DNA of 29,781 bases, taken from a virus. The notes under the pieces were generated by a model. It saw only the letters and a list, made by a program, of their open reading frames with translations. It ran no database searches and was not told the DNA's origin. Position numbers and translations under genes: made by a program. Numbering within the stretch: the stretch's first letter is position 1; each line of letters opens with the position of its first letter. The DNA lies in the UHGV virus genome UHGV-0132373; one strand, written 5' to 3'. Positions 24,001 through 25,398 of the stretch are shown here, one piece after another.

Positions 24001-24330
24001 TTAGTCATCCATGGATGGATTGAGCTTATCTCGTGTTGATGTGGCAATTTTACCAACATTTTTCAACCAAGATTTTAAGAAGGATATGTCGTCCTTAATA
24101 TCATGAATATCCTCATTCTTTATACGATCAACCTTATCCTCTAGGCTCTCTATAGAACGCTCAATGCTAGACAGAGAGATTTTTAAGTCTCCTTGCTCAC
24201 GTTCCAGTGAGGATTTGAGAGCACAATATTCGTTTTCTAGAATTCCTATTTTTTTTGTTAGAGAGTGCATTCGATACTCATACACCAAACTAGAAACGAC
24301 TAATGCAGCCAACAGAAACCATTCAAGCAC
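24001..24330 (-). CDS. small membrane-anchored coiled-coil protein (cargo operon gene 3)
   Basis: 109 aa from GTG 24330 with AAGGAGGT five nt upstream; N-terminal TM helix (LEWFLLAALVVSSLVY), then a charged heptad-like region (…LEREQGDLKISLSSIERSIESLEDKVDRIKNEDIHDIKDD…). AT-rich. No recognised family. Confidence 0.6.
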   Translation of the reverse strand: MLEWFLLAALVVSSLVYEYRMHSLTKKIGILENEYCALKSSLEREQGDLKISLSSIERSIESLEDKVDRIKNEDIHDIKDDISFLKSWLKNVGKIATSTRDKLNPSMDD

Positions 24331-24352
24331 ACCAACCTCCTTAGTTGATATT

Positions 24353-24772
24353 TTATTTGTATGAAATCAACGAGTTAAGCTCCCTCTCATTTAGAGATTG
24401 GAATCTTTTTTCAGTTATATCAATGATGGATGGCAATAGTTTTTTTACCTTCTCATGGCCATCAGGTTTAATGATAGCAATGATCTGGATATGAATTGGA
24501 TATGTGTTGTGTACCGCAAATATCAAAAAGTTATCGCTAACTCTACGATGTATTGGCGTTGTTTTTAACCAAGGATCATCTACTCCAGGGATCCTGATGT
24601 GCGACTTGTAAATTCCCGATAAGACGGCGTGATGGTTTCTCTCAAACCCACCAATCTTACCAAGATAAGCTGAAACTGTGCCTCTGTTTTTGTAGTTTGC
24701 AAGAGCCTTCGCAAAGTATTGTTCTAATGGTCCAGCCGCTGCATCTACAACAATGCTTATGCGGTTTTCCAT
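24353..24772 (-). CDS. YafO-like toxin-domain protein (cargo operon gene 2)
   Basis: 139 aa; core …SHIRIPGVDDPW…NFLIFAVHNTYPIHIQIIAIIKPDGHEKVKKL…EKRF parallels E. coli YafO as I recall it (…AHIHLANENNPF…HLVYCQGAFDEQAWLLIAILKPEPHKLARD…FRMRF). Start overlaps the upstream gene by 16 nt. Confidence 0.6.
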   Translation of the reverse strand: MENRISIVVDAAAGPLEQYFAKALANYKNRGTVSAYLGKIGGFERNHHAVLSGIYKSHIRIPGVDDPWLKTTPIHRRVSDNFLIFAVHNTYPIHIQIIAIIKPDGHEKVKKLLPSIIDITEKRFQSLNERELNSLISYK

Positions 24773-25338
24773 TTTGGTGCTTCCATGCCAAATCTTTTAT
24801 GTGAATCTTCAACTGATTTCTTGAATGAAGCCAACTCTTCTTCAGTGAACTCTTCAGGTTCAGCATATGATAGTGGTATGTGCTGCATTGCTAGCGTCAC
24901 AAGCCCCATAGTTAGCCTTTTGTATTCTATAAAAGTATTTATTGAGTGATTTTTCATTGTTGTAAGAGTTGACATATGGGGCTTCCACGCATCGCTGTTC
25001 TCAGCGATGAAGAAGGTATACAACAGTTTCGCGATACCATAATCAAGCTTAGATATCTGATCGTTCAACATATCTACATCGTCATGTTGAATATCAAGTG
25101 AGGAAATATCTTCTTCCGTACCATTACTTAATATGTCAATGAATGTAATGTACTTTTTGCAAACTTCCTCTACAGGTGACATAACGCAGTAGATCTTGCT
25201 AAGAGCTTCAGAAGCCTGTTTTTTAGACAAAGAGCCGCTATGACTGCGATCAAAGTCTGAAATTGAACGCTCGATAGATGTTGATATGTCAGAAAAAACG
25301 TTTTCAATTTTTCCTGGCTCTTGATTCAGGATGGCCAT
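24757..25338 (-). CDS. hypothetical 193-aa acidic protein (cargo operon gene 1)
   Basis: First ATG at 25338 (ORF-track start 25356 is GTG); begins 42-60 nt downstream of the mnt stop on the same strand; AT-rich; no TM segment and no motif I recognise. Confidence 0.55.
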   Translation of the reverse strand: MAILNQEPGKIENVFSDISTSIERSISDFDRSHSGSLSKKQASEALSKIYCVMSPVEEVCKKYITFIDILSNGTEEDISSLDIQHDDVDMLNDQISKLDYGIAKLLYTFFIAENSDAWKPHMSTLTTMKNHSINTFIEYKRLTMGLVTLAMQHIPLSYAEPEEFTEEELASFKKSVEDSHKRFGMEAPKWKTA

Positions 25339-25398
25339 AACGCCTATCTCAATCACAATGTATACCTTGTTATTTTATATCAACGAACAAACATTGAC

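Follow-up and report, generated by a model that had tools for sequence, protein, structure and literature searches.

A putative YafO-type toxin-antitoxin cassette and a separate membrane-protein gene as cargo of a P22-like prophage

UHGV virus genome UHGV-0132373 (29,781 nt, analysed at its full length and called the window below) is the replication-to-tailspike portion of a P22-like (Lederbergvirus) prophage. Its positions 24001-25398 hold a block of three reverse-strand genes, orfA, orfB, and hkcB, which we read, with a probability of roughly 0.65, as two independent pieces of lysogenic-conversion cargo: orfA-orfB, a toxin-antitoxin (TA)-type cassette whose toxicity and neutralisation are predicted, and hkcB. 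The block is 100% identical to positions 655627-657024 of Escherichia coli SFAD3 (NZ_CP176645), and phage CUS-3 has the same three genes in the same order (96% nucleotide identity), all annotated as hypothetical. At the level of annotation, the name of the toxin and the CUS-3 genes are already public. The present analysis adds that the cassette is autonomous, that OrfA belongs to a family with two partner-specific subtypes, and that the cassette recurs behind lysogeny repressors. The block is laid out as follows, with the start of orfB lying within the end of orfA (16-nt overlap).

orfA, 24757..25356, minus strand: 199 aa from the GTG at 25356, 193 aa if from the ATG at 25338
orfB, 24353..24772, minus strand: 139 aa, YafO family (RelE/ParE superfamily), putative mRNA-cleaving toxin
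orfB-hkcB spacer, 24331..24352, minus strand: 22 nt with an AAGGAGG Shine-Dalgarno sequence; also the recombination junction between cassette and hkcB
hkcB, 24001..24330, minus strand: 109 aa, GTG start; its stop abuts the stop of gene 16

Distribution of the cassette and of hkcB

An earlier, sequence-only reading of this DNA had taken the three genes for a single module, and their independent distributions contradict it. In a set of 5,426 complete E. coli genomes, 155 carry hkcB, 111 of them without the cassette, whereas 44 carry orfA-orfB, always with at least 99% identity; only 6 cover at least 80% of the whole block at the nucleotide level. The carriers of the cassette include UTI89, NU14, UM146, and IHE3034, where it lies in CUS-3-type prophages of sequence type 95 (ST95)-type extraintestinal pathogenic E. 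coli (ExPEC). The hkcB gene occurs without orfA-orfB in HK620, epsilon34, and many E. coli prophages, and the cassette occurs without hkcB in other genera, in lambdoid prophages, and in a siphovirus.

The boundary between the two pieces can be placed precisely. The hkcB-only prophages are homologous to window positions 24001-24346 and the K1-type prophages to positions 24328-25398. Since the shared stretches end at 24346 and start at 24328, respectively, the recombination junction lies in the 22-nt spacer between orfB and hkcB. The window itself is a mosaic of this kind: hkcB and the last ~140 bp of gene 16 (23861-24346) are of the HK620 type (97.7% nucleotide identity), and orfA-orfB-mnt are of the CUS-3 type. 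The HkcB protein is accordingly 97-98% identical to that of HK620 and only about 55% identical to the alleles of CUS-3, epsilon34, and SEN22, which places the same cassette beside different hkcB alleles in the window and in CUS-3.

Outside E. coli we found isolated two-gene islands in which a gene of 199-201 aa and a gene of 139 aa, with the identical 16-nt overlap, lie between housekeeping genes. Neither hkcB nor a phage context is present at these Pectobacterium and Xenorhabdus sites (loci L004, L005, and L006/7):

Pectobacterium fontis: between an ABC transporter gene and gcvP
Xenorhabdus PR6a: between slt and an ABC-F gene
X. szentirmaii: between prfC and rimI

The pair recurs in further settings:

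Lambdoid prophages (L011:2785-5058 and L019:475-2291): directly downstream of a cI-like S24 repressor, co-oriented with it
Locus L020: close to a PirA/PVC cluster
Siphovirus: between the tape-measure and distal tail genes
Salmonella P22-like prophage (L025): mnt, orfA, orfB, and, where hkcB would be, an unrelated polytopic membrane protein of 118 aa

Altogether, orfA-orfB occupies at least 7 distinct genomic contexts, and at least 6 contexts besides that of the window lack hkcB. Judged by these comparisons of sequence and gene order, orfA-orfB is an autonomous mobile bicistronic cassette and hkcB is separate cargo. The suggestion that the block includes a TA module therefore stands for the pair, which has the anatomy and the distribution of a mobile type II TA cassette.

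The proteins and their families

OrfB had been described as YafO-like from its translation, and profile searches agree: it matches PF13957 (YafO_toxin) with an E-value of 7.2e-12 and 45.7 bits (cut-off 25) over model positions 2-98 of 101. All homologues of OrfB carry the same domain, and the Prokaryotic Genome Annotation Pipeline (PGAP) names the gene "type II toxin-antitoxin system YafO family toxin". In an alignment with E. coli YafO (using a sequence with 99.2% identity to the annotated yafO), OrfB is 21% identical, and the residues H58, P67, R77, D80, H106, and E121 are the same in YafO and in all members of the family. Its score against the NCBIfam YafO equivalog NF007377 is 14.2 bits, under the cut-off of 153, and we thus regard OrfB as a member of the YafO family and not as an orthologue of YafO. 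YafO inhibits translation as a translation-dependent mRNA interferase that cleaves translated mRNA (PMC2814082), and PF13957 is one of 13 toxin families of the RelE/ParE superfamily (PMC11980606). Searches with sequence profiles found no meaningful relative of the YafO-like family in the Protein Data Bank (PDB), and our literature search found no paper linking CUS-3 to this TA cassette.

OrfA belongs to a family of its own. It has no Pfam or NCBIfam match at E ≤ 1 apart from a spurious one, it lacks PF13274, and it can be assigned only to PHROG 18235, a group of unknown function. When 1.84 billion representative proteins were searched exhaustively with its profile, 17 relatives turned up, so the family is rare. 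The AlphaFold2 (AF2) model of OrfA, with a mean predicted local distance difference test score (pLDDT) of 80.7, is a four-helix bundle (residues 14-37, 45-78, 91-119, and 125-159), followed by a low-confidence linker (160-171), a C-terminal helix (172-188), and a tail. Structure searches with it gave generic matches only, and profile searches of the PDB with the family gave nothing meaningful.

The C-terminus of OrfA comes in two types, each with its own downstream partner. Type-a proteins end in F-x-E-E-x-A-x-F-K-K-x-V-x-D-S-H-x-R-x-G-x-E-x-P-x-W and are followed by a YafO_toxin gene at 9 of 9 loci, among them the two lambdoid prophages and the siphovirus. The protein encoded upstream in the siphovirus is only about 27% identical to OrfA; it is nevertheless a homologue according to hhalign (95.6%, E 1e-8) and keeps the W-x-H and SH..G.EPP.W motifs. 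Type-b proteins end in P-E-W-V-K-S-x-D-D-F-V-K-W and are followed at all six loci (6/6) by a gene for a 123-130-aa protein of PHROG 5954, with the motifs LPGRNKPS, HYHxG, FGDWTS, and HPPxKLP. These partner genes are at the following positions:

L010:801-1172
L012:889-1266
L013:2065-2457
L024:1034-1411
L023:5616-5993
L022:881-1123

At one type-b locus, in a phage whose tail genes are different, an mnt homologue immediately precedes the pair, and divergent arc and antirepressor genes are present as well. The type-b partner has no Pfam match, and its PDB profile search gave nothing meaningful. We rejected the idea that it is a YafO relative (hhalign probability of 0.1% against the YafO-like family) and regard it as a candidate new toxin family. 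Both types have the N-terminal bundle in common, and the C-terminus of OrfA changes together with the gene that follows; from these sequences we infer that the C-terminus is the partner-binding element.

Both genes of the cassette are under purifying selection. Between two Xenorhabdus copies, the ratio of nonsynonymous to synonymous substitution rates (dN/dS) is 0.14 for orfA and 0.085 for orfB; in comparisons with the window copy, synonymous sites are saturated. The gene in the toxin position is the more conserved of the two.

HkcB belongs to PHROG 5962 (function unknown). The description of the third protein as a transmembrane (TM) segment plus a coiled coil agrees with our hydropathy and heptad analysis, which finds one hydrophobic segment at residues 2-17 and then an amphipathic, heptad-like region. 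Basic residues after the TM segment, read with the positive-inside rule, would place most of the protein in the cytoplasm. We rejected HkcB as a homologue of SieA: BLASTP against P22 SieA returned no alignment at E ≤ 100, and the FxRYPxEAxxFNK motif is absent from HkcB. Our literature search found no study of hkcB beyond its naming.

The insertion slot and its expression signals

In P22-like phages, gene 16 and the tailspike gene are separated by a region known as the ant moron, a hypervariable insertion into the late operon of which sixteen genomes show ten types (PMC2629481, Villafane et al. 2008). In P22 it contains sieA, hkcC, orf59a, mnt, arc, sar, and ant, and the six-gene type of CUS-3, UTI-1, and APEC-1, which includes the genes studied here, has already been described (PMC2629481). 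SieA genes of every type are located in this slot (PMC10883804). The proposal that the block is horizontally acquired is borne out: the limits of the cassette, at about 24331-25398, are recombination junctions, and the cargo varies among related prophages. In our survey of these prophages, the gene adjoining gene 16 is constant and the bay from there up to mnt is exchangeable, with the following contents:

orfA-orfB: window, CUS-3, K1 ExPEC strains
hkcC: HK620, USVAST219, A3
P63C-domain gene: VR50
gene 15: epsilon34
SocA_Panacea antitoxin gene (PF13274, E 2e-24) and a 140-aa open reading frame (ORF): ET245

In the ET245 prophage (L009:4199-5076), the 140-aa ORF (PHROG 8366, function unknown) follows the Panacea gene after 6 nt and is not annotated by PGAP; the two are probably a TA pair of the PanA type.

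The reverse-strand gene abutting gene 16 encodes a small membrane protein from one of three unrelated families, namely HkcB and the two listed here, and the position looks like a "membrane-protein slot".

SieA, L026:993-1487 (P22), reverse strand: 164 aa
118-aa membrane protein, L025:6449-6805 (Salmonella P22-like prophage), reverse strand: about four TM segments, no PHROG match

The composition and layout reported from sequence alone were confirmed. The block is AT-rich (GC content 0.379, versus 0.496 for bases 1-24000), and 4.8% of the 1398-nt windows are as AT-rich, all the others lying over the receptor-binding domain of the tailspike. The part of the window that encodes this domain (27426-29072, GC content 0.364) is a second patch of foreign composition. 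The block had been called the only one on the reverse strand, and the PGAP minus-strand genes of the identical prophage within the span of the window are indeed hkcB, orfB, orfA, and mnt; the sar antisense RNA is the one other minus-strand feature. The reported spacings are correct as well (16-nt overlap, 22-nt gap with AAGGAGG, and a start of orfA 42-60 nt after mnt, the distance from the stop at 25399 being 42 nt for the GTG and 60 nt for the ATG). The length of OrfA needs correction: the reading frame is real, and the 193 aa first given are probably six residues too few, since homologues begin at the position of the GTG and PGAP also gives 199 aa. Upstream of the cassette, the window has these features:

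mnt-orfA spacer, 25357..25398, minus strand: -10-like TGaTATAAAAT and AAGG Shine-Dalgarno sequence, without terminator
mnt, 25399..25647, minus strand: immunity-I repressor gene, upstream of orfA and co-oriented with it
Pant (plus strand, TTGACA-17-TATATT) and Pmnt (minus strand, TTGAGA-17-TATCAT), 25670..25703: divergent and overlapping, matches of a consensus scan only
sar antisense RNA, 25900-25967, minus strand: Rfam RF00262, 95.6 bits, E 2e-20, between arc and ant

The mnt gene has about 88% nucleotide identity to that of P22 and is named by PGAP as an Arc family DNA-binding protein. The finding of sar between arc and ant completes the immunity-I region (mnt, arc, sar, ant). The annotation of CUS-3 differs, with two mnt genes and no arc.

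No terminator separates mnt from orfA, as had been stated: the scan gave no terminator-like hairpin, and the spacer folds no better than shuffled sequences (z-score of 0.52). The promoter and terminator scan yielded no more matches than shuffled sequence, and we used only its Pant/Pmnt pair, because the position agrees with the annotation of Pmnt and Pant in epsilon34. The 45 nt preceding orfA can be aligned with the regions upstream of the chromosomal cassettes of Pectobacterium and Xenorhabdus. They share the motif TGTTT..TATAAAAT..AAGGT, which comprises a -10-like element and a Shine-Dalgarno sequence; the -35 element of the chromosomal cassettes (TTGCGT/TTGCTG) is replaced in the window by the sequence after the mnt stop. 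Since the cassette keeps its own -10 element and Shine-Dalgarno sequence, its expression does not require dependence on Pmnt. To judge from these signals, it may be transcribed from its own weakened promoter, by read-through from Pmnt, or both.

Expression of the cassette in the lysogen is plausible, because it lies directly downstream of, and co-oriented with, a lysogeny repressor gene in four independent lineages: behind mnt in the window, CUS-3, and the Salmonella prophage L025, behind mnt in L013, and behind a cI-like repressor in L011 and L019. In the window, hkcB lacks a conserved promoter of its own, and it would most simply ride on the transcript of the cassette. When the late operon is transcribed from gene 16 into the tailspike gene, the polymerase must cross the whole block in the antisense direction (PMC2629481). 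An imperfect palindrome of 24 nt (AATAACAAGGTATAC / GTATACATTGTGATT on the minus strand, window 25351-25374) covers the Shine-Dalgarno sequence and GTG start of orfA. We dropped it as a candidate autoregulatory operator because it is not conserved in the Pectobacterium and Xenorhabdus copies.

Proposed function, rival explanations, and known systems

We infer toxicity of OrfB, its neutralisation by OrfA through the C-terminus, expression in the lysogen, and a defence, exclusion, or addiction phenotype, along the following lines. OrfB, a member of the YafO family in the RelE superfamily, would by homology be a toxin that arrests translation by cleaving translated mRNA. OrfA, which is translated first and is coupled to orfB through the overlap, would act as the cognate neutraliser, its C-terminal helix and tail (SH-R-G-E-P-W) binding the toxin. 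In the lysogen, the cassette would be expressed from its own weak promoter, by Pmnt read-through, or from both. Depletion or sequestration of OrfA would then free OrfB and shut down translation, which would either abort the infection when a phage superinfects or stabilise the prophage post-segregationally. HkcB would be a separate bitopic inner-membrane protein with a coiled coil at the sieA position and a candidate exclusion factor; with three unrelated small membrane proteins occurring at this position, action at the membrane against incoming phage is a reasonable guess, though no more than that.

A bolder version of this scheme, which we consider rather improbable, makes OrfA the founder of a new, rare modular family of partners, in which a shared four-helix bundle with swappable tails would neutralise two unrelated small toxins, YafO-like or PHROG 5954-like. 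The recurrent site of the cassette directly behind lysogeny repressors (mnt in two phage lineages, cI in two) would in that case have a function. Expression would be tied to the repressor promoter, so that shut-off of Pmnt or PRM (for instance by Arc of a superinfecting P22-like phage, or by anti-repression) would deplete OrfA and free the toxin, a "dead-man switch" for abortive infection.

Several observations weigh against a TA cassette accompanied by an exclusion gene. Our knowledge of orfA, orfB, and hkcB comes from sequence and predicted structure. Neither a DNA-binding domain nor a known antitoxin domain can be recognised in OrfA, which is also unusually large for an antitoxin. The AF2 model of OrfB, built from an 8-sequence alignment, has a mean pLDDT of 41, so a RelE-like fold is not verifiable from it. 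OrfB has no match in PADLOC-DB 2.0, and the PADLOC hits of the other two proteins were rejected as low-scoring, partial, and compositional (PtuB for OrfA, E 0.0046; DpdH for HkcB, E 4.5e-4, confined to the TM and coiled-coil region). Our literature search turned up no YafO-type system with demonstrated anti-phage activity, and the case for exclusion by HkcB is purely positional. Upstream of orfA, the consensus scan gave no promoter, and the assignment of a promoter of its own comes solely from sequence conservation.

The PADLOC results and the lack of published anti-phage activity would also be expected if orfA-orfB had no part in defence but were neutral hitch-hiking cargo or a selfish module for addiction or stabilisation, and if hkcB had nothing to do with exclusion and served, for example, the phage's own lytic cycle. 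The isolated chromosomal islands of Pectobacterium and Xenorhabdus, devoid of phage context, point the same way, and so does the near-identity of the E. coli copies, largely confined to CUS-3-type prophages of ExPEC, which fits clonal carriage. We still consider this explanation fairly unlikely: the cassette lies repeatedly in lysogen-expressed moron slots beside repressors, and the same slot hosts SieA and the Panacea-type pair, both of which fit a defence role without proving it. A catalytically dead or repurposed YafO fold in a non-toxic OrfA-OrfB complex with another function, such as regulation, could account for the low identity of OrfB to YafO, its score far under the equivalog cut-off, the failed fold model, and a partner unlike any known antitoxin. 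It would sit poorly with the His, Arg, and Asp positions common to YafO being invariant in all OrfB homologues, and with the strong purifying selection on the pair. As in working TA pairs, conservation is higher for the toxin than for its partner, and the genes retain a tight overlap; we consider the loss of toxin activity very improbable.

The remaining explanation, that the three genes form one system transcribed from Pmnt (e.g., a toxin, an antitoxin, and a membrane effector or anchor), draws on the layout of the block: the genes are co-oriented and tightly packed, a strong Shine-Dalgarno sequence precedes hkcB, and no terminator follows mnt. CUS-3 has the identical order, and in the Salmonella prophage a small membrane protein follows the cassette too, though an unrelated one. 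The distributions speak against it. Each piece occurs without the other, the cassette in at least 6 other contexts and hkcB in the 111 E. coli genomes, HK620, and epsilon34; the recombination junctions lie exactly between orfB and hkcB; and the cassette is the same in the window and CUS-3, whereas the hkcB alleles are only 55% identical. A single three-component system is therefore distinctly improbable, and we retain the reading of two independent cargo pieces.

The cassette is most readily compared with yafNO, where the toxin is of the same Pfam family (PF13957), the gene in the antitoxin position also comes first, and the two genes are likewise bicistronic and overlapping. The differences concern the partner and the location: OrfA is not a YafN/Phd-type protein (Phd-YefM family) but a 199-aa four-helix bundle without a Pfam, NCBIfam, or PDB relative, and yafNO adjoins dinB, whereas the cassette described here lies on a prophage. 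The SieA gene of P22 is the counterpart of hkcB in position (reverse strand, directly after gene 16, between the gene 16 and gene 9 homologues), and both encode small predicted inner-membrane proteins of P22-like prophages. The two proteins belong to different families (PHROG 7745 for SieA and 5962 for HkcB), and SieA is polytopic with the FxRYPxEAxxFNK motif (PMC10883804), whereas HkcB has one TM segment and a coiled coil. The study that described the ant moron treats the genes of the block as unknown; it contains neither the YafO assignment nor the OrfA family, and it does not describe the cassette as autonomous (PMC2629481). The present results sharpen its picture to a fixed small membrane-protein gene at gene 16 plus an exchangeable bay that repeatedly holds TA-type cargo.

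In the Panacea systems (PanA/SocA), one partner domain goes with unrelated downstream proteins, and OrfA likewise has two subtypes with two partner families; it differs in lacking PF13274, in having only two partner types seen, and in forming a tiny family. If orfA-orfB works as a TA pair, OrfA would be a structurally new partner for the small YafO toxin family and would join Panacea as a second example of a partner domain that serves different toxins. An effect on phage resistance or prophage stability would bear on phage therapy of K1 strains, because the carriers are ST95-type ExPEC. The set is easy to test, as CUS-3, HK620, their hosts, and the assay system for SieA already exist (PMC10883804).

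The position behind a repressor also has a parallel in phage lambda. The rexAB genes of lambda are located immediately downstream of cI, and the distant orfA-YafO cassettes of two lambdoid prophages likewise lie directly behind a cI-like S24 repressor. This likeness is positional only, as RexA and RexB have no homology to the proteins of the cassette. Upstream of the window, the SFAD3 prophage (L014:6043-8656) contains a sieB homologue and, directly downstream of a LexA-family (cI-like) repressor gene, a DUF1828 gene and a hypothetical gene, all of them candidates for further lysogen-expressed cargo.

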